The notes beneath the pieces are model-generated. The model saw only the letters and a program-made list of their open reading frames with translations, ran no database searches and had not been told where the DNA came from. This document shows, piece by piece, positions 37,531-48,548 of a stretch of DNA of 64,000 nt. A program made the position numbers and the translations under genes. The DNA comes from Escherichia phage EI-SP-GF. How positions within the stretch are numbered: position 1 is the first letter of the stretch; each line of letters opens with the position of its first letter. The stretch lies in the sequence record OR992645.1; one strand, written 5' to 3'.

Positions 37531-37770
37531 CCTAGCCGGATATTTTAAAATTCTTAGAAAATCAGAAAATGGATCGAAAACTAAAATGGATTTTTCAAGA
37601 CAGGCGCGATAAGATGTGCTGCTCATTCTATCGTTCGCACCGTACTTTAAGTTACTATTCCAGATTTTCCGCACATACCCTCACCCTTCTACCAGAACTT
37701 TCCCAGCTTACCTTTGACCTTTTATAACAATAAGCCCATTATTCTCAGTAGGTTTTGATACATCTCTCTC

Positions 37771-37858
37771 AGTACTCGATCTGTTTTTCGTTTCAAAGAT
37801 TGAATTTTCTGAAAATTTTTCTCGATAAATTTCTTAGTACTCGATCTGTTTTTCGTTT
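37771..37858. repeat. Direct repeats (23 bp AGTACTCGATCTGTTTTTCGTTT x2, plus degenerate third copy) in non-coding region
   Basis: Identical 23-mers at 37771-37793 and 37836-37858; related CGATTTTTCGTTTTCGG at about 37915. Confidence 0.7.
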
Positions 37859-38060
37859 TCTGAATCAGATTTTCTGGAAATCGTTCCGGAGCTCGACCTG
37901 AAATTTTTGGGGACGAAATCGATTTTTCGTTTTCGGAAATGGATTTTTAAAATTTGTATATGGAAATATTTAAGGAGGTATTATTTTATATAGAATTGTC
38001 ACGGTAGGTAATTAGCATGCTAACTAAATTTATGAAATGCGAAAAGTTCTCATTTAGAAT

Positions 38061-38260
38061 TTTGAATGATAATCATTCTCGTTTGCAGAATAACGGGCAC
38101 CCCCGGTGATTGTCTCCCGGCCCCTGTTGCCCCGGCTTGTTATTATAGTATCACACAGGACAAAGAAAGCAAGGATTTTTTGCATAAATTTTTAAATGAT
38201 AATGATAACCGTTCTCATTTTATGCAGCGCCCATCCCCGGTGGTTGTCTCCCCCGTCACC
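38061..38260. repeat. Duplicated roughly 65 bp GC-rich element
   Basis: Two copies sharing AATGATAAT...TTCTC.TTT...CCCCGGTG.TTGTCTCCC, at about 38061-38130 and 38190-38260. Confidence 0.55.
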
Positions 38261-38719
38261 GGTGCCTGCCGTCCTTTCGATAGGTATATTGTGCCACCTG
38301 TCGGGGCCGCTGTCAACACTTTTCAAAAAAAAAATTCTAACCTGATGCGCTAACCGTTGCAACCTGGCGGGGCCAGCCTGACCAGGTAGGAGAGAGTGAA
38401 AGCTTGCAAACCTGGTAGGCCTATGCTACAGGGCAGGTAACAATTGAAGAGGAGGTACAAAAATGAAAGGTAATTTGATCCCCTGGAAATGTAGCGATTA
38501 ATGACGCTGAGGCTATCGCCCTGGTTGAAAAGGCTATGGCGGGAGCGTTGGAACATAAAGAAGAGTACGAAAAAATGATGGTTAACCTGGTAGGGGCGGC
38601 GGCTGGAGAATTCTGCCCAAAAAATAATTCTAACTAATGGTTGACAGCTCGGATAGTTCTGTTATTCTTATCCTTGCAAGGTGAACAACACCACACTAAT
38701 TAACAGAGAGGATAAAATC

Positions 38720-38981: not shown

Positions 38982-39380
38982 ATGAAAACCACTACCTTTA
39001 ATTTTGATAATGCGGACTTTTCTTTTTCTGATGTCAAGAACTGCCGCCGTGATCGTGGATTTTACAAGGCTTATAATCTGGTGGGCCTGGACGATGACAA
39101 TAATTTGCACGAAGTAGCTGAGATCCGGTATTATGCCGCCGCCAGCGGGAACACTCAATACTGCGTTTTTTGGATTCACGACAACAAGAACAATAAGTAC
39201 GGTTATACTGGCGGGAAGGCGAGCGGTCACGGTTACGATAAAGCTAATGCAGCACTTGAGAGCGCATTAAATGCTATGGGGATCACTGCCAACGGCTGGA
39301 TCTATGAAGAAGAGTTTTTGTCGGCACTTGCTAACCACCTGGGCTATAAAAAGCACATTGTAACATGCGCCCACGAATAA
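38982..39380 (+). CDS. Hypothetical protein
   Basis: 132 aa ORF with strong RBS. Confidence 0.6.
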   Translation: MKTTTFNFDNADFSFSDVKNCRRDRGFYKAYNLVGLDDDNNLHEVAEIRYYAAASGNTQYCVFWIHDNKNNKYGYTGGKASGHGYDKANAALESALNAMGITANGWIYEEEFLSALANHLGYKKHIVTCAHE

Positions 39381-39387
39381 AAAATTA

Positions 39388-39416
39388 TTGACACGCTGCA
39401 AAATTAAAGTAAACTA
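39388..39416 (+). promoter_or_regulatory. Promoter (TTGACA-N13-TAAAGTAAACT type) with 5' UTR hairpin
   Basis: TTGACA 39388-39393; same TAAAGTAAACT block as in the 44 bp repeat; hairpin GGCGGGAATGTTTCCCGCC follows. Confidence 0.55.
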
Positions 39417-39463
39417 GGCACAAAAGGCGGGAATGTTTCCCGCCAACACAAAGGAAAAAGATC

Positions 39464-39859
39464 ATGAATAAGAACGTACGCCGCATCATGAACGAACTGG
39501 CAAACGATGAAAAAATTATTGATATGCATTTGGTCAACATTTGCCGCCGTTGTGTAACATATAACAACCGCGCCGCAAAAGCGCGTGAGATGAACGCAAA
39601 AGGCACCTTAAAGCCCTTTCAGGTGGTTGTAAAATCTATAACTAATGCAGCAGGCCAGGCGCATGACCACAACAACGAGAGCACTAATATTGATCCGTCT
39701 TACGTAATGAAACGGATCCGGACTTGCAAGAATAAAGATCAGGTGTATAACGTCATAGATTGGCTGGACTCCATGGGCGATGTTGTTTATAATAGGTTTT
39801 CTGCAGCTATCGAGATCCAGCTTGACAGACTGGACGGGAAAGTACTGAAAACTTACTAA
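39464..39859 (+). CDS. Hypothetical protein
   Basis: 131 aa ORF; GGAAAAAG RBS. Confidence 0.6.
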   Translation: MNKNVRRIMNELANDEKIIDMHLVNICRRCVTYNNRAAKAREMNAKGTLKPFQVVVKSITNAAGQAHDHNNESTNIDPSYVMKRIRTCKNKDQVYNVIDWLDSMGDVVYNRFSAAIEIQLDRLDGKVLKTY

Positions 39860-39861
39860 GT

Positions 39862-39906
39862 TTATTTTTAGATGGCCTTGACTCCAGGGCCATCAATAAA
39901 GTAAAC
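39862..39906 (+). repeat. Conserved 44 bp element, copy 1 (TTATTTTTAGATGGCCTTGACTCCAGGGCCATCAATAAAGTAAA)
   Basis: Identical in three copies; contains ATGGCC/GGCCAT inverted repeat and TTGACT...TAAACT promoter-like spacing. Confidence 0.8.
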
Positions 39907-39938
39907 TAATCCCAGTTAAGCTAAAAGGGGGCTTAAAG

Positions 39939-40058
39939 ATGAGCACTACACGCCAGCACACAAAGGTAACTATTATCGTTTGCATCATTGGTTATATCCT
40001 GGCGCAAATGTTGATGGGTAGCGCCAACAGTGTCGCAAAATTTTTCTTAAACTTTTAA
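39939..40058 (+). CDS. Putative small membrane peptide (39 aa)
   Basis: GGGGG RBS then ATG directly after the 44 bp element; hydrophobic core VTIIVCIIGYILAQMLMG. Confidence 0.3.
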   Translation: MSTTRQHTKVTIIVCIIGYILAQMLMGSANSVAKFFLNF

Positions 40059-40086
40059 TTGACAAGCTAACTTAGATCAGTATACT
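40059..40086 (+). promoter_or_regulatory. Sigma70-like promoter (TTGACA-16-TATACT)
   Basis: TTGACA 40059-40064, TATACT 40081-40086; hairpin CGGGAAAACTTCCCAG then AAGGAGA RBS. Confidence 0.6.
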
Positions 40087-40136
40087 AAACACATCAACGG
40101 GAAAACTTCCCAGAACACACAAAAGGAGAAAACACC

Positions 40137-40478
40137 ATGACTACTATGACCGCCGCAGAAAAAGCTATTCAGATCGCTGCCCTGAAAAAACAGATCGCAG
40201 ACCTTGAGAATAAGATCGATAACTTTGAAATCGACGAGGACAAGTACGACGAAAACTATGATGAATGGTTAGACGAGATCTACGGCGAAATTATGATCGG
40301 AAACATTTCTTTTCTTCCGTCGCGTATCCTCAAGGAGCTAGATCCTATCGCTTACCGCTGCGGATTTAGCGACTACATCGACAGCCTGGATATTGAGGAC
40401 GATGAAGAATACCAGGAATTACAGACAGAGTTGGAAGAAGCAAAAGAAGAGCTTGCGGAGCTGGAAGAAAACGAGTAA
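40137..40478 (+). CDS. Highly acidic coiled-coil protein
   Basis: 113 aa, Asp/Glu-rich (EDDEEYQELQTELEEAKEELAELEENE). Confidence 0.6.
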   Translation: MTTMTAAEKAIQIAALKKQIADLENKIDNFEIDEDKYDENYDEWLDEIYGEIMIGNISFLPSRILKELDPIAYRCGFSDYIDSLDIEDDEEYQELQTELEEAKEELAELEENE

Positions 40479-40480
40479 GA

Positions 40481-40525
40481 TTATTTTTAGATGGCCTTGA
40501 CTCCAGGGCCATCAATAAAGTAAAC
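40481..40525 (+). repeat. Conserved 44 bp element, copy 2
   Basis: Identical to 39862-39906. Confidence 0.8.
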
Positions 40526-40567
40526 TTTATACTGTTAACACTGAACTAATGCATAGGAGTTAAAACC

Positions 40568-40813
40568 ATGGCAGCACTAATCACTAAATATTACGCCCCT
40601 ACCAACACCAAAAGCGCCCGTATCATGGTAAAAGGCTTCGGACGTAAAAAGGTTTACACCTGGGATTATTCCCTAGACATGGAAGACAACTACACCAACG
40701 CGATGACTGATTTTATTAATGAACTAAATAAGCAGATCTTAACCAATTATAAGGTGACCGACATCGCCTATGTTGGGGAAGGTGGGATCTGTTTTGTCGG
40801 TATTGTCAAATAA
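40568..40813 (+). CDS. Hypothetical protein
   Basis: AGGAGTT RBS; 81 aa. Confidence 0.55.
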   Translation: MAALITKYYAPTNTKSARIMVKGFGRKKVYTWDYSLDMEDNYTNAMTDFINELNKQILTNYKVTDIAYVGEGGICFVGIVK

Positions 40814-40825
40814 ACTGTTTTTTCG

Positions 40826-40849
40826 GTGGCCCTGGTGGCAGGGCCATCT
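40826..40849 (+). terminator. GC hairpin (TGGCCCTG-gtgg-CAGGGCCA), candidate terminator or processing site
   Basis: 8 bp stem after stop of upstream gene; T-rich tract upstream rather than downstream, so function uncertain. Confidence 0.35.
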
Positions 40850-40888
40850 ATAAAGATAGTTTATTAACACCATGAAAGGAGAAAGTAC

Positions 40889-41242
40889 ATGATCAGCGGG
40901 GCTAGTTTTATTATTGGCGCTATTGCTACAGCTTTAATTGTAAACAAGATCCAGGATAAAAAGGAAAGAGGAAGTACCGCCCTTGCAGAATATCCATTTT
41001 GGACATTCAACGATAACGAAGATTATATTATAAAGTATAAAAATAAAGAAGGTTACCAAGTAACACCGCGACCGATCCCGGCTTACAAGATGCAGGAAAC
41101 ACTATACCGCTTGGAGGCAGGGGGCGCAAAAATTGTGGACTTTTGGGGATACGATCACACAGATCAGGAAGTTATAAAGCGCCGTATCCGGGCTATTCAG
41201 GCCAATATTGAAGTTAGCAAGGGGGGAATATATGAAGATTAA
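40889..41242 (+). CDS. Membrane-anchored hypothetical protein
   Basis: N-terminal hydrophobic MISGASFIIGAIATALIV; AAGGAGAAAG RBS. Confidence 0.55.
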   Translation: MISGASFIIGAIATALIVNKIQDKKERGSTALAEYPFWTFNDNEDYIIKYKNKEGYQVTPRPIPAYKMQETLYRLEAGGAKIVDFWGYDHTDQEVIKRRIRAIQANIEVSKGGIYED

Positions 41243-41429
41243 TTTTGAGAAAATTGTAAAGCGATCTCATGATTCCGAAGAGCTGCCGGAACGCCGCCAG
41301 CGTAACAATAAACTGAATAAGCCAAAAAGATTTGGGAAGATCTGGCGGAATCATTATGATCGTAAATTGCCGGGCCTCCTTTTGGAACGTGAACGGCAGG
41401 CGGAACGATACCGCCACAAAGGCAACTAA
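41232..41429 (+). CDS. Small basic protein
   Basis: ATG 41232 after GGGGGG RBS; Arg/Lys-rich. Confidence 0.45.
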   Translation: MKINFEKIVKRSHDSEELPERRQRNNKLNKPKRFGKIWRNHYDRKLPGLLLERERQAERYRHKGN

Positions 41430-41436
41430 CAACCAA

Positions 41437-41466
41437 CGCCCCGCCATCGTGCGGGGCTTTTTATTT
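41437..41466 (+). terminator. Rho-independent terminator
   Basis: GCCCCGC-catcgt-GCGGGGC then TTTTTATTT. Confidence 0.7.
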
Positions 41467-41587
41467 CTACCCTACAAATAGCGCCCCTGGTTGGCCCCAC
41501 AACGCCCTAAAAGCCCCCTACCCATGCAATCCCCTTTCTTAACCTGAAAACATCGTCAAAGGCTGTTTTAAAGCGTTAAAAATATTG

Positions 41588-41615
41588 TTGACATCTAAAA
41601 TATTCTAGATATACT
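41588..41615 (+). promoter_or_regulatory. Sigma70-like promoter (TTGACA-16-TATACT)
   Basis: TTGACA 41588-41593, TATACT 41610-41615. Confidence 0.6.
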
Positions 41616-41650
41616 AATCACATCAAAGCGAGAAGTAAGGAGTAAACGCC

Positions 41651-41911
41651 ATGCGTAAATTGAAAAATTTTGATAAAGTCGATGTTGTCCTAAATAATTT
41701 TTACTACTGCAATAACAAGGCCGTTTGGTGGCGTGATAGTTCCACCGATAAAGTCAAGGCGCGCTTTCTCCAGGGGCACTGGCAAGGCCGCCCAGTGATT
41801 AAAATCATGGGGCAATTGGTAGCGTTTAAAAATTGCCGCCGTGTTGATGACGTTGAAGAGATTTTAAACATTTTGCGCCACAATAATTTAAAAAATAGTG
41901 TTGACAAGTAA
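41651..41911 (+). CDS. Hypothetical protein
   Basis: TAAGGAGT RBS; 86 aa. Confidence 0.55.
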   Translation: MRKLKNFDKVDVVLNNFYYCNNKAVWWRDSSTDKVKARFLQGHWQGRPVIKIMGQLVAFKNCRRVDDVEEILNILRHNNLKNSVDK

Positions 41912-41928
41912 ATCTCAATAAGTATACT
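41901..41928 (+). promoter_or_regulatory. Sigma70-like promoter (TTGACA-16-TATACT) with 5' UTR hairpin
   Basis: TTGACA 41901-41906, TATACT 41923-41928, hairpin GGCGGGAAAACTTCCCGCC. Confidence 0.6.
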
Positions 41929-41985
41929 TAAACACACAGGCGGGAAAACTTCCCGCCACCAACAAAGAAAATAGGAGAAAATATC

Positions 41986-42609
41986 ATGACTACCGTTAAC
42001 ATTACCACAGGTTACAATTTAGCTTTCGACGTGCTGACCGACGAACAAAAAGAAAAAGCCGTGGAAATGGTCCGCGAAAGAGAAGAACACAGCGGGGATA
42101 ACTTTTTTGCAGAAAGTGTAATTGAGTACTATAAAGAATATGTTTTTCCAGAGTACGGCCTTGAAGATACCGATGTACATTGGTCAGGCTTTTGGTGCCA
42201 GGGTGACGGCGCGTCAATCAGTGCGGAAAACGTGGATTTAGAAAAATTCTTGCGTAAAGTCAAGTCTCTGACTAAATTCCGCTCAATTCGTCACTTGTTC
42301 GGCACAATGCACGATGGCGAGTTATCCGCAAGTGTTGAGCGTGATCCATATAGCCGCTATAGTCACGAAAACACTGTAAACGGGTACATCGATACTACAT
42401 GGCTAGACCTGACCACCAAGCAAGAAAACAAAGTGGAAGATCTGGAAGAGCTGATCACCGAGACGGTACGGGAGTTATCCCGCAAGGTTTACGTAGACCT
42501 GGAGGAGGCCTATCTAGAACAGTTCACTACCGAAAACCTGATCGGCCTTATTGAGGCCAATGATTGGCGGTTTGATGTCGATGAACACGGTGAGATGACT
42601 TTTTCATAA
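41986..42609 (+). CDS. Acidic hypothetical protein (207 aa)
   Basis: ATAGGAGAAAA RBS; no motif recognised. Confidence 0.65.
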   Translation: MTTVNITTGYNLAFDVLTDEQKEKAVEMVREREEHSGDNFFAESVIEYYKEYVFPEYGLEDTDVHWSGFWCQGDGASISAENVDLEKFLRKVKSLTKFRSIRHLFGTMHDGELSASVERDPYSRYSHENTVNGYIDTTWLDLTTKQENKVEDLEELITETVRELSRKVYVDLEEAYLEQFTTENLIGLIEANDWRFDVDEHGEMTFS

Positions 42610-42698
42610 ATAAAGTGTTGCAATAACCTAAAAACCTGCTATATTAAAACTCAAGGGGCAAGACGTTTGCCCCCACACAAAACAAAGAGGTAAACATT

Positions 42699-43079
42699 AT
42701 GAAAAACACTACTAAAGCTATTGACACCGTTATGTTTAACCTGGTTACCTTTCGCGAGGATATGAAAGATCTTCCACGTGAAACAGTGTGCGATCACATT
42801 GAAAACTATCGCAAACTAATCAAAGAGTTGCCTTTAAAACGTGATCAGTATGCGGCTAACGCCATGCTTAATGCCATGATCAAAAAGATGATCCAGTGTG
42901 ATTTAACTTTGGCCTATGACTATGCTGGTGGTCGTTTTGCAGTATACAATCAGCCCGTGCCCGGTATGGGCACCACCGAAGAATTGCACGCGCTCAATCT
43001 AAAACAAGACGTGTGGGATAGTATGCCCCGCGTGGTGGTGTGGGCAGAAAGCGGAAAGATTTACGGCGATAATTTTTAA
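42699..43079 (+). CDS. Hypothetical protein
   Basis: AAGAGGTAAACA RBS preceded by hairpin GGGGCAAGACGTTTGCCCCC. Confidence 0.6.
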   Translation: MKNTTKAIDTVMFNLVTFREDMKDLPRETVCDHIENYRKLIKELPLKRDQYAANAMLNAMIKKMIQCDLTLAYDYAGGRFAVYNQPVPGMGTTEELHALNLKQDVWDSMPRVVVWAESGKIYGDNF

Positions 43080-43143
43080 TCAGGTAACAGGCGGCATATT
43101 TGCCGCCTTATTGTTAAACAGAACTGCAAAAGAGGTACATAGA

Positions 43144-43515
43144 ATGGAATTTATTATTTTGGCTGTATTGGTTGCCTTGTTTAACGCCTGGATCGCTGGC
43201 AAGATGGGCAGATCCGCCTTTTTATGGTTTATTATATCTATTTTCCTGGGGGTGGTTGCAACTATTGTATTGGTTATCCTTGCAATTGTTGACAAGGGGA
43301 ATAATAGAAAGGGTAAAGTATTTTCAGACCTGTACGACGCTCAAACGTTTGTCAACGCCTATTATAGTGATCTTCCAGTCTCCCTACGCTGCAGCCTGGC
43401 ACAACAGGTTTTTGATGAGGCTAAAACCAGAGATCAAGCCCATGAGATATGTTTAACTGAGGCGGATCGCCTATTTGAGAGGAATAGAAAATATGTGGGC
43501 CAACCGTTTAAATAA
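43144..43515 (+). CDS. Membrane protein (two predicted TM helices)
   Basis: ATG 43144 after AAGAGG RBS and hairpin GGCGGCATATTTGCCGCC; hydrophobic N-terminus. Confidence 0.55.
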   Translation: MEFIILAVLVALFNAWIAGKMGRSAFLWFIISIFLGVVATIVLVILAIVDKGNNRKGKVFSDLYDAQTFVNAYYSDLPVSLRCSLAQQVFDEAKTRDQAHEICLTEADRLFERNRKYVGQPFK

Positions 43516-43738
43516 TGCCACGTTAATTAATTCCTTTAGTGAAGATTTGAAGCCAGCCGCCTGGCGTGACGGATTCAATAACGAACGCTTTATTTTCAGG
43601 CCTGATCTTGAGGAATTTTATAACAATGGATCGAACAACAGCGGAGATAATTTTTCTTGTGGTGTGTGTCGTGATAGGACTCCTGGGGGCCATTGTAGAT
43701 CGCGTCACTACTACCGGGAGGAAAGGGGGAGACGATGA
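43493..43738 (+). CDS. Hypothetical protein (uncertain; competing small TM ORFs in other frames)
   Basis: ATG 43493 after GAGAGGAA RBS; alternative 43626-43751 encodes a TM peptide. Confidence 0.25.
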   Translation: MWANRLNNATLINSFSEDLKPAAWRDGFNNERFIFRPDLEEFYNNGSNNSGDNFSCGVCRDRTPGGHCRSRHYYREERGRR

Positions 43739-43855
43739 CAACCAAGGATAAGCCATGCACCGATAAGGTGCGCCGCGTTATGGTATGGCTTGAGATTATC
43801 GCCCTTGAAATATTGCTAGGCGTAGGGATGTACTTTATCGCTGTAAGTAACTAGG
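43736..43855 (+). CDS. Putative small membrane peptide (39 aa)
   Basis: AGGGGGAG RBS; hydrophobic WLEIIALEILLGVGMYFIAV; followed by terminator. Confidence 0.3.
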
Positions 43856-43857
43856 AA

Positions 43858-43890
43858 CGGCCCCCGATCATGGGGGCCTATCTTTTTAAA
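43858..43890 (+). terminator. Rho-independent terminator
   Basis: GGCCCCC-gatcat-GGGGGCC then TATCTTTTT. Confidence 0.7.
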
Positions 43891-43993
43891 AAATTTTTCT
43901 TCCGTGGTGTTGCAATCCGGTCCGGAATGTGGATAATAACAATCAACGGGGAGCTAATCCTCACCACCACAAAAACCAGAAAGGAGAAACAAA

Positions 43994-44194
43994 ATGAGCA
44001 ACAATATCCGCGTTATTAACTTCAAAAAAGAAGAAAAAATTGCCGTGCTGATTGACGGTCAAGAAATCTTCAAGGGCGACTATGAAGATCATCAAACGGC
44101 GATTAGTATCACTCGCGTGATTGGTTACCATAATTTTTACCCCCAAGGAGCTGAGGCAGCGGTTAAACGAATCAAAGAGATTGTAGGCCTGTAA
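43994..44194 (+). CDS. Hypothetical protein
   Basis: AAGGAGAAACA RBS; 66 aa. Confidence 0.55.
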   Translation: MSNNIRVINFKKEEKIAVLIDGQEIFKGDYEDHQTAISITRVIGYHNFYPQGAEAAVKRIKEIVGL

Positions 44195-44197
44195 AAT

Positions 44198-44242
44198 TTA
44201 TTTTTAGATGGCCTTGACTCCAGGGCCATCAATAAAGTAAAT
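44198..44242 (+). repeat. Conserved 44 bp element, copy 3
   Basis: Identical core to 39862 and 40481, ending GTAAAT instead of GTAAAC. Confidence 0.8.
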
Positions 44243-44287
44243 TTAAACCCTGTTAAAATACCACGCAGTTAACAAGGAGTGATAGAC

Positions 44288-44587: not shown

Positions 44588-44604
44588 TTTCAACAGGTGA
44601 TTTT

Positions 44605-44955
44605 ATGAAAGTTAAATTATATTACCTTAATGAGCTTAACCCCCTTGCCCAGGTCCGCGCCCTAGCTAATACCTTGATTTGTGAGAAATCTGTATATTGT
44701 GTTGAGCTTAACGCCATGCGTGAACGTCTCAAAGGTGGTTACTTTAACATCCATGCTGCAATCAACGGCCTGAATATGGAATTTATCCGTTTACGTAACA
44801 GCCGCCGGAATCTGGCAAGAATGGAACAAGATCCGGCCCACCTTCGTAAGCTGGTTATTGAAAATCATCTGATGTTTAATGCCGAGGGTGATTATTACCA
44901 TTTTCACCGCAAACGCTGGTACCGTGGCGGCAATACAGGCAAGAATGCAAAATAA
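44605..44955 (+). CDS. Hypothetical protein
   Basis: 116 aa ORF. Confidence 0.55.
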   Translation: MKVKLYYLNELNPLAQVRALANTLICEKSVYCVELNAMRERLKGGYFNIHAAINGLNMEFIRLRNSRRNLARMEQDPAHLRKLVIENHLMFNAEGDYYHFHRKRWYRGGNTGKNAK

Positions 44956-45506: not shown

Positions 45507-45740
45507 ATGATGGAACAAATTAAACGCACCGAGGCTATTAATGGCAATGTGATCTATTTTGTTAGCAATAACGAGAAAGGCGTACCATATGCAGCGGTAA
45601 TAGTACAGCCTGACGGTGATTATTGGTTTACTGTATACGGATCTTATTCTTTCGGGCGTCCGGTGCATGATAGAATTTTGAAAGTAGCGAACCCTACCGG
45701 GAAGAATATCACAGCAGAAAAATTTTTTGAAAATAGTTGA
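45507..45740 (+). CDS. Hypothetical protein
   Basis: AGAGAGG RBS; 77 aa. Confidence 0.5.
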   Translation: MMEQIKRTEAINGNVIYFVSNNEKGVPYAAVIVQPDGDYWFTVYGSYSFGRPVHDRILKVANPTGKNITAEKFFENS

Positions 45741-45764
45741 CATGACCATATAAAACTGTAATAT
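45737..45764 (+). promoter_or_regulatory. Sigma70-like promoter (TTGACA-16-TAATAT)
   Basis: TTGACA 45737-45742, TAATAT 45759-45764. Confidence 0.55.
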
Positions 45765-45815
45765 ATAAATCAAAGGGAGCAACAAGCCCCACCAACCACA
45801 AAGAGGATAAAAATC

Positions 45816-45995
45816 ATGGCTATTATTGCAAAGACCGAGATCGTAGGCTTAGATTCTATTCTCCTCGCATATGAGGAAGCTATAGAAATGTATGTGGTTT
45901 CCTATGGTGAGTATATCCGTGAATATGAATCTATTGATCTAGCTTTTGAATGTTATATTCGCCAGGTTAATAAAGCGTACGATGATTATCGTTAA
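45816..45995 (+). CDS. Small hypothetical protein (59 aa)
   Basis: AAGAGGATAAAAATC RBS; below ORF-track cutoff. Confidence 0.4.
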   Translation: MAIIAKTEIVGLDSILLAYEEAIEMYVVSYGEYIREYESIDLAFECYIRQVNKAYDDYR

Positions 45996-47638: not shown

Positions 47639-47772
47639 ATAAAAGTGTTTTGGTACTGATTTTGGGGTTGACTTGTTCGGCCCCTTTTGCTATTCTTATT
47701 AAACGGGCGGCACTTGGGAACAGGTGGAGACAATCACCGGGCCTGCCTGTCATATAAGAACTATAAAAACCG

Positions 47773-47801
47773 TTGACATCTGCCATGGGGTGGGGTAACA
47801 T
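47773..47801 (+). promoter_or_regulatory. Sigma70-like promoter (TTGACA-17-TAACAT)
   Basis: TTGACA 47773-47778; AGAGAGGAAAACAC RBS downstream. Confidence 0.5.
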
Positions 47802-47855
47802 TTATCTTGAAGGGGCAAAGGTGCCCACACAACAACCAGAAGAGAGGAAAACACT

Positions 47856-48128
47856 ATGTCAAGCTGGATTAATCAAGAAGTCGAATCACGTTTTAATGCT
47901 ATTTGGGATCTCATCGAAAAAGAAGACGGCACATCAAGCCCCTACCTCAACAATTTGGAATTCCATTTTGTGGAAGCGATGAACGCAGAACATGATCACG
48001 AAGGTGGTGCGGACGAGTTCGCTAAAGGGTATGGCTTCAACAATGCCAACGAAATGATCGAGGCGGTTGTACTCCAGGCTGAGGAAGATTATCAATTAAA
48101 AACGCTTGAATTCTGCCGCCGTAAGTAA
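47856..48128 (+). CDS. Hypothetical acidic protein
   Basis: 90 aa ORF with strong RBS. Confidence 0.55.
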   Translation: MSSWINQEVESRFNAIWDLIEKEDGTSSPYLNNLEFHFVEAMNAEHDHEGGADEFAKGYGFNNANEMIEAVVLQAEEDYQLKTLEFCRRK

Positions 48129-48519: not shown

Positions 48520-48548
48520 TTGACAGGGATCGGCAGTTTTGCTATATT
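48520..48548 (+). promoter_or_regulatory. Sigma70-like promoter (TTGACA-17-TATATT)
   Basis: TTGACA 48520-48525, TATATT 48543-48548. Confidence 0.6.

Follow-up and report, generated by a model that had tools for sequence, protein, structure and literature searches.

Conserved intercistronic RNA hairpins in the early region of rV5-like Escherichia phages, candidate post-transcriptional signals

The DNA analyzed here comprises 64,000 nucleotides of Escherichia phage EI-SP-GF (sequence record OR992645.1; hereafter the window), in which a 44-bp sequence, TTATTTTTAGATGGCCTTGACTCCAGGGCCATCAATAAAGTAAA, is repeated between small early genes. Analyses of this 44-mer indicated that it lies within an intercistronic hairpin present in four paralogous copies. 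The fold is specific to one strand and covaries, its stems and internal loop are under purifying selection, and its apical loop is free to vary. The selected feature is an RNA structure, and not a linear promoter or a DNA operator, because the arms pair consistently, changes in them are compensatory, G.U pairs fit the + strand, and constrained stems enclose a variable loop. We infer that the hairpins act after transcription. They are most likely RNase III processing signals on early mRNA, of the type known from phage T7, or an uncleaved variant that stabilizes 3' ends, a reading drawn from structural analogy to which we give a probability of about one half.

Results

Four copies of one hairpin

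The 44-mer was present in exactly three copies, all on the + strand (39862-39905, 40481-40524, and 44198-44241). These identical copies between small genes had been described in an initial annotation made from the DNA letters alone, and they were borne out by exact matching: the 44-mer had no occurrence in 100 dinucleotide-preserving shuffles, where essentially none is expected by chance, and no further match with up to three mismatches was found in the window. As that annotation had also stated, each copy follows a stop codon and precedes the next gene; the 44-mers start 2-3 nt past the stops of upstream + strand open reading frames (ORFs; stops at 39857-39859, 40476-40478, and 44192-44194), and the next ATG is 34-47 nt downstream of each. 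The ATGGCC/GGCCAT inverted repeat and the promoter-like TTGACT...TAAACT arrangement it had pointed out are likewise there, with a spacing of N18 and with TAAATT in copy 3. What had been missed was that the A/T-rich tract and the TAAAGTAAACT block, which had been proposed as a -10 element, are complementary to one another, and that the window holds a diverged fourth copy, D (~40809-40865), with the same stem, another loop, and no TTGACT. Copy D was found with a relaxed sequence pattern.

RNA folding placed all four copies in one extended + strand hairpin with free energies (dG) of -22 to -32 kcal/mol and z scores of -5.0 to -7.4, while folding of the - strand of the element was far weaker (z of -2.1 and -4.1). 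A covariance model of the family identified exactly these four sites in the window, with scores of 79-91 bits on the + strand and 34-41 bits for their - strand images. The hairpins and the parts of copy 1 are as follows.

39858..39908, + strand: hairpin copy 1, containing the 44-mer at 39862-39905; dG -25.0, z -7.2; 90.8 bits
39858-39868/39898-39908 and 39871-39880/39885-39894, + strand: lower and upper stem of copy 1
39869-39870/39895-39897 and 39881-39884, + strand: internal loop and apical loop (ACUC) of copy 1
40477..40527, + strand: hairpin copy 2, containing the 44-mer at 40481-40524; dG -22.3, z -5.0; 88.2 bits
40809..40865, + strand: hairpin D, the diverged paralogue; dG -32.1, z -7.4; 78.8 bits
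44194..44244, + strand: hairpin copy 3, containing the 44-mer at 44198-44241; dG -23.6, z -6.3; 83.2 bits

Each hairpin is capped by a tetraloop on a 10 bp upper stem, below which come a 2x3 internal loop (UA/AAU in the 44-mer copies, UC/UAU in D) and a 10-14 bp A/U-rich lower stem. The A/T-rich tract forms the 5' arm of the lower stem and the TAAAGTAAACT block its 3' arm. In the 44-mer copies the upper stem is GAUGGCCUUG paired with CAGGGCCAUC, which includes a U.G pair and reads, from the loop downward, G-C, U-A, U.G, C-G, C-G, G-C, G-C, U-A, A-U, and G-C. Copy 2 has the architecture of copy 1 plus one A.A mismatch in the outer lower stem; copy 3 has A-U in its outer lower stem where copies 1 and 2 have G-C, the compensatory change that turns TAAACT into TAAATT. 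Hairpin D has a 14 bp lower stem that includes the upstream ORF stop codon, an upper stem of GGUGGCCCUG/CAGGGCCAUC, and the loop GUGG, and its best promoter match is 7/12. The stop codon of the upstream ORF is at or within the base of the lower stem in all four hairpins, and the folding indicated that ribosome-binding sites are not sequestered.

Comparative evidence for a conserved RNA structure

An alignment of 53 copies (37 of them distinct) was made from the window and 15 related loci. Standard pairs were formed by 96.8% of the pair cells, versus 35-57% when the 3' partners were slid by 1-3 columns, and neither the observed covariation score nor the percentage paired was reached by any of 500 shuffles. 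Two-sided compensatory changes were found in four of the 11 lower-stem pairs (GC/AU/GU, UA/CG, UA/GU/AU, and AU/UA) and in none of the 10 upper-stem pairs, where variants were one-sided and G.U-compatible. The pair 16-64 illustrates such a change: it is G...C in copies 1 and 2 and A...U in copy 3, and the same C/T difference separates TAAACT from TAAATT, so that the variation in the supposed -10 hexamer is matched by a G/A change 48 nt upstream. Among the non-Watson-Crick cells, ~96 were G.U and 9 were A.C; the pairing therefore works only for the + strand.

The distribution of sequence diversity (mean pairwise, among orthologues) followed the fold. It was 0.004 in the upper stem, with 2 of 80 columns varying, 0.020 in the internal loop, and 0.060 in the lower stem, compared with 0.095 and 0.099 in the upstream and downstream flanks. 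Hypervariability (0.226, with 11 of 16 columns varying) marked the apical loop, into which the last bases of the supposed -35 hexamer fall. Rare 1-nt insertions (CAAATAAAG) and substitutions (CGAT, CAGT) were located in the internal loop, and copy 1 of phage Gotham had lost its 3' arm through a 5-nt deletion. Hairpin D was conserved in 15 of 15 genomes. The initial annotation had held that the 44-mer is conserved beyond the needs of a generic promoter, and this holds up, as does conservation of the element in relatives (~120 genomes); the explanation given there, a promoter combined with a protein-binding site in DNA, does not fit a pattern of constraint that is that of an RNA hairpin. A protein may well bind the element, but it would then do so on RNA.

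Transcription units containing the hairpins

The four copies sit in a + strand block of small early genes (~35.5-49 kb) with many near-consensus sigma70 promoters (16-17 bp spacers) and few intrinsic terminators. The block at 39388, which had been noted as related to the 44-mer, is a real promoter-like site, TTGACA-N16-TAAACT, and it has A[T/A]TAAAGTAAACTA in common with the 3' arm of the 44-mer. The promoters, terminator, and units that bear on the hairpins are listed here.

39388..39415, + strand: strong early promoter, TTGACA-N16-TAAACT (P194 of rV5); its transcript crosses hairpin 1
40059..40086, + strand: strong early promoter, TTGACA-N16-TATACT; its transcript crosses hairpins 2 and D to 41438
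41438..41457, + strand: canonical intrinsic terminator at the end of the unit with hairpins 1, 2, and D
43910..43937, + strand: promoter-like TTGCAA-N16-GATAAT after terminator 43859, at the head of the hairpin 3 unit
39878..39907, + strand: sigma70-like hexamers in copy 1, TTGACT-N18-TAAACT; 9/12, spacer 18
40497-40526 and 44214-44243 (TAAATT), + strand: sigma70-like hexamers in copies 2 and 3; 9/12, spacer 18
Unit, + strand: P39388, gene 39464, hairpin 1, gene 39939
Unit, + strand: P40059, gene 40137, hairpin 2, gene 40568, hairpin D, genes 40889 and 41232, terminator 41438
Unit, + strand: terminator 43859, P43910, gene 43994, hairpin 3, genes 44288 and 44605, terminator 44993

A terminator scan identified no terminators between the upstream promoters and the hairpins. 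Upstream promoters precede the hairpins in these units, and every hairpin is therefore inside a unit that is already served. The 60-95 nt gaps of the region fell into two classes when folded: gaps with strong promoters (at least 10/12) had free energies of -3 to -17 kcal/mol and the four hairpin gaps of -24 to -33 kcal/mol. None of the nine flanking proteins received a function from searches of PHROGs and Pfam, which also identified no candidate DNA-binding or RNA-binding protein among the neighbors.

Distribution of the hairpin family

The region is 94-97.5% identical to that of rV5-like Escherichia myoviruses of the genus Vequintavirus, and blastn identified the element at ~3 places per genome in ~120 related records. 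Distant blastn searches with the element and with the 1.9 kb region found no copy outside Vequintavirus, and there was no match to the element in 5,426 E. coli genomes. The covariance model had no match in phi92 (1-50 kb), T7 (1-8 kb), or the lambda N leader. A search of 39-45 kb against Rfam at a permissive threshold gave matches at chance level only; the best that overlapped the element was to the rhtB sRNA, with 23 bits against a gathering score of 55 (E = 1.7), and thus to no family. In a scan of IMG/VR with an 18-base pattern, for which ~4 matches are expected by chance, the rV5-like loci were only L012, L017, and L018 (two contigs), and the remaining matches were unrelated. None of the 33 promoters listed in the rV5 genome paper, among them the equivalent of the one at 39388 (P194), contains GGCCAT (PMC3606486). 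The Gotham record annotates the element as a promoter, a prediction from PhagePromoter. Together, these searches indicated that the hairpin family appears to be restricted to Vequintavirus and undescribed. Its kind is already known, as an intercistronic processing or stabilizer hairpin and a PeSL-like repeat.

Among the related sequences were 17 unannotated records (MG0656xx) that are named 'Campylobacter phage', give Campylobacter jejuni as their host, and are 94-95% identical to the rV5-like region. This host label looks doubtful.

Recombination between copies

The following segment separates hairpins 1 and 2 and is missing from some relatives.

39908..40477, + strand: deleted segment of 570 bp between hairpins 1 and 2, with the 39 aa and 113 aa genes and promoter 40059

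In L017, ECP26 (L034), and ECP32 (L035) the flank that precedes copy 1 continues into the flank that follows copy 2, and both ends of the deletion in these three genomes are inside the repeat. No hairpin takes part in the other indels of this 9 kb region. Within a genome, copies 1 and 2 often carry the same loop variant while copy 3 differs, a sharing that points to gene conversion between the copies.

The 116 aa gene at 44605-44955 (region 44588-44945) was missing in five relatives (Gotham, L017, Aya, V18, and WM) through a deletion that ends at no hairpin.

Other features of the early region

The 81 aa gene at 40568-40813, between hairpins 2 and D, is small and widely shared: tblastn gave homologues of 35-44% identity in unrelated phages, namely coliphages of the Seuratvirus type, myoviruses of Pseudomonas, and Klebsiella phage records of ~40 kb, in the last at the left end. 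As these homologues occur only in unrelated phages, they were of no help in tracing the hairpin.

The true promoter gaps (39375-39466, 40046-40139, 41888-41988, 42605-42701, 45724-45818, and 47760-47858) form a separate repeated cassette, in the order AT-rich tract, TTGACA, N16-17, TAnnnT, a short GC-rich stem-loop of the 5' untranslated region (for example, GGCGGGAAAACTTCCCGCC), CA-rich spacer, Shine-Dalgarno (SD) sequence, and ATG. The cassettes at 40059 and 41901 cross-match between genomes with 75-77% identity over 93 nt, and cassettes of this type are closer to classical PeSLs than the 44-mer is. At 47664-47696 and 48520-48548, canonical terminator-like hairpins contain the -35 of the next promoter and their T-tract serves as its spacer (GGGGTTGACTTGTTCGGCCCC-TTTTGC-TATTCT), making a compact overlap of terminator and promoter.

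Two early stretches, 37613-38179 and 38354-38719, had no convincing ORFs and were predicted to fold with -118 and -100 kcal/mol, with internal cross-matches around 37767-37957; Tandem Repeats Finder identified nothing notable at 37.4-38.8 kb. The genetic map in the rV5 paper has a 'non-coding' box, which may or may not correspond to either stretch (PMC3606486).

Discussion

Candidate RNase III signals

We propose that four paralogous hairpins of ~51-57 nt would be transcribed within polycistronic early mRNAs driven by the upstream sigma70 promoters. Bound to this helix of roughly two turns, host RNase III would nick the internal loop ~11 bp below the tetraloop, a nick that we propose because the design of the hairpin matches T7-type processing signals. 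The nick would split one cistron from the next, and the upstream message would keep the upper stem-loop as protection for its 3' end; in a close variant, the hairpin would stabilize this 3' end without cleavage. The identity of the copies would be kept by selection plus gene conversion, and recombination between the direct repeats, which deletes the intervening genes, would be a by-product. The embedded TTGACT/TAAAYT hexamers would be what is left of an early promoter, from which transcription may still start weakly.

Substrates of E. coli RNase III contain about two helical turns of double-stranded RNA, at least 20-22 bp, with the target site ~11 bp from the apical tetraloop; internal loops limit the enzyme to one strand, and a protective 3' hairpin is left on the upstream RNA (PMC1540722). 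The hairpins described here offer a helix of ~21-24 bp, in which the 10 bp upper stem and the 10-14 bp lower stem are coaxial across the 2x3 loop, and in all four copies an upper stem of exactly 10 bp is followed by a non-Watson-Crick position 11. Reported rules for the paired positions of such substrates are a distal box of a U-A and a U.G pair, and a proximal box in which pb1 is G-C, pb2 is A-U or U-A with no G-C, pb3 is A-U, and pb4 is A-U, U-A, or non-Watson-Crick, the last being the case in native R1.1 of T7 (PMC1540722). The distal box, U35-A43 and U34.G44 below a closing G-C pair, was found in 27 of 27 distinct 44-mer copies, and in the proximal box pb2 is A-U (G.U in D) and pb4 is non-Watson-Crick, as in these rules.

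For comparison, five early intergenic gaps of T7, which reportedly hold the early RNase III signals R0.3, R0.5, R1, R1.1, and R1.3 (Dunn and Studier, 1983), were folded with the same tool; the RefSeq record of T7 has no RNase III site features annotated. The folded gaps had the same layout of upper stem, internal loop, and lower stem, with the upper-stem sequence conserved between sites. Like the rV5 hairpins, the T7 signals are sense-strand hairpins (~50-60 nt) repeated in early-operon gaps, with a conserved upper stem of ~10 bp, an internal loop ~11 bp below the apical loop, and a lower stem, and promoters are interleaved in the same gaps. R1.1 as folded here has C-G, U-A, and U.G from the loop down, and the rV5 hairpin likewise has U-A and U.G below its closing pair. 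In contrast, there is no sequence homology, as the covariance model found nothing in T7 1-8 kb, and the rV5 hairpin has a longer and more stable lower stem, a smaller (2x3) internal loop, and non-optimal pb1 and pb3. The phages also differ, the rV5-like phage being an unrelated myovirus with many host-type promoters where T7 has three.

The uncleaved variant has its own precedent. REP-type stabilizer hairpins follow stop codons in polycistronic RNA, where they could block 3'-5' exonucleases and set differential mRNA levels. The rV5 hairpins are like these in being stable and directly after a stop codon within a polycistronic transcript, but they have no E. coli sequence similarity and they have a conserved internal loop and flanks that a passive barrier would not need.

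Several points weigh against a role in RNase III processing. Copy D has U-A and C-G and so is without the U.G of the distal box, and at pb1 and pb3 the hairpins have U-A and G-C, which are off the optimum for minimal substrates. RNase III substrates are diverse, hence structural resemblance is weak proof, and a search of the literature for transcriptome, transcription start site, or cleavage data from Vequintavirus found none. The covariation represents few independent events, most of which separate two types of paralogue. In addition, the near-invariance of the upper stem goes beyond the need for pairing and could reflect another sequence-specific RNA-binding factor, and the three 44-mers carry a 9/12 match to sigma70 promoters and resemble the neighboring P39388.

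Alternative explanations

The promoter resemblance raises the question of PeSLs, the composite elements of T4-type phages. These are, like the element described here, repeated intergenic motifs of a plastic early region that are followed by an SD sequence and ATG (PMC2839356, PMC4122927), and they have an AT-rich tract, sigma70-like hexamers, and a stem-loop that by definition may overlap the -35 (PMC2839356). Neighboring copies of PeSLs recombine to delete intervening ORFs, and the copies evolve in concert; a deletion with its endpoints in the repeats (39908-40477) was observed here as well. By this analogy the 44-mers would primarily be working sigma70 early promoters for the downstream gene (a UP-like T-tract, TTGACW, 18 bp, and TAAAYT), and the overlapping stem-loop would be a transcriptional insulator or attenuator and a recombination linker. 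Taken jointly, we regard these two proposals as possible though rather unlikely. All three 44-mers have TTGACT-N18-TAAACT/TAAATT, a match of 9/12 on the right strand within one 44 nt element that has ~2% probability by chance from the shuffle rate, one loop variant gives a perfect TTGACA, and PhagePromoter calls the element a promoter in the Gotham record. The 3' part of the 44-mer also matches the -10 region of P39388/P194, an accepted promoter, almost exactly. However, the tail of the -35 is in the most variable positions of the element, and spacer length varies: 1-nt insertions extend it to 19 bp in three of the 27 copies, and it is 20 bp in the most divergent one. Hairpin D is kept in all 15 genomes without the hexamers, the C/T change in the -10 is compensated 48 nt upstream, for which a promoter has no need, and the AT-rich tract and -10 are themselves base-paired and covarying. 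Moreover, upstream promoters already serve the downstream genes, the real promoter cassettes form a separate family, and the element occurs just four times, within one stretch of 4.4 kb. The stem-loops of PeSLs are described as terminators in which a G-run and C-run are flanked by A/T runs (PMC2839356, PMC4122927), whereas neither strand of the rV5 element has a T-run following the stem, and for this reason the hairpin is not a terminator. Weak sigma70 promoter activity of the three 44-mers, perhaps vestigial, is nevertheless possible. The 44-mers probably derive from a promoter like that at 39388, based on their 9/12 match, 18 bp spacer, and near-identity to its -10 region.

The near-invariance of the upper stem and internal loop, even between diverged paralogues, would also be explained if a phage or host RNA-binding protein other than RNase III used the hairpins as operators, co-regulating translation or decay of the four flanking early genes. 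The absence of doubly changed pairs from the upper stem, compared with four of 11 in the lower stem, and the clustering of the four sites within 4.4 kb among genes with no assigned function are in line with this. Yet the sequence identity can also come from recent shared ancestry together with gene conversion, the hairpin leaves ribosome-binding sites free, and the neighboring genes, which lack Pfam or functional PHROG assignments, offer no RNA-binding candidate; we consider this explanation improbable. Even less support can be given to the idea of the initial annotation, here extended to a palindromic operator or cruciform at which a dimeric DNA-binding protein would switch the promoters, which we regard as very improbable. 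A near-palindrome of 22 bp does overlap the -35 and spacer, and conservation is above the level of a generic promoter. As DNA, however, the half-sites are asymmetric, their differences are always of the G.T type on the + strand, and both folding and score are much poorer for the - strand. An A/T lower stem of 10-14 bp with compensatory changes and an asymmetric 2x3 loop would be unexpected in a DNA operator, and no candidate for a DNA-binding protein is nearby.

Other identities were tried and rejected. An intrinsic terminator was dismissed as the stem is followed by CAAUAAAG (+ strand) or CUAAAAAU (- strand) with no U-tract, and the element was not among 23 terminator-like sites in 35-50 kb. 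A single-stranded DNA promoter of the Frpo type was dismissed as the -35 and -10 are on opposite arms of the hairpin.

A similar stem in Pseudomonas phage leaders

The IMG/VR pattern scan also identified ~22 GC-rich (51-65%) contigs related to temperate Pseudomonas siphophages (LESphi3, phiPSA1, and YMC11/07/P54), namely L004-L009, L011, L014-L016, L020-L025, and L027-L032 (e.g., L016 4620-4990). These have an unannotated early leader composed of a sigma70-like promoter, a boxA-like GCTCTTTAACAA, ~250 nt of conserved structured RNA, and a hairpin. The hairpin is near-invariant, ATTTCCTCGA-TGGCCTTG-GNRA-CAGGGCCA-TCCGGGAAA, and is 20-30 nt before the ribosome-binding site of varied first genes; its 10 bp upper stem is identical to that of the rV5 hairpins, with a C.C mismatch at position 11 and a lower stem of 5-7 bp. 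Rfam searches of eight of these loci identified only tRNAs. The layout recalls the order of the lambda leader, pL-nutL-RNase III site-N, with which it has the layout in common and not the sequence.

The stem shared by the rV5-like and Pseudomonas phages may be a coincidence because ~4 chance matches were expected for the pattern. We speculate, as a distinctly doubtful proposal, that unrelated phages use an invariant upper stem, followed by a non-Watson-Crick position 11, as a portable module for RNA recognition. If this speculation is correct, the optimal site of a conserved host factor would have arisen by convergence in both phage groups or passed between them; the factor, RNase III or a different double-stranded RNA-binding protein, would control entry into early gene expression.

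Implications for rV5-like phages

The rV5-like phages are widely used in biocontrol and phage therapy and as model phages (BASEL collection). To our knowledge, their early gene regulation is essentially uncharted. The hairpin element has been mis-called a promoter by sequence-based predictors and by human readers. Its 44 bp direct repeat naturally deletes two genes, which matters for the genome stability of engineered and production phages. For the biology of these phages, the hairpins add a conserved cis-acting RNA family that is absent from databases and, with it, a testable mechanism by which four early genes may be controlled post-transcriptionally.

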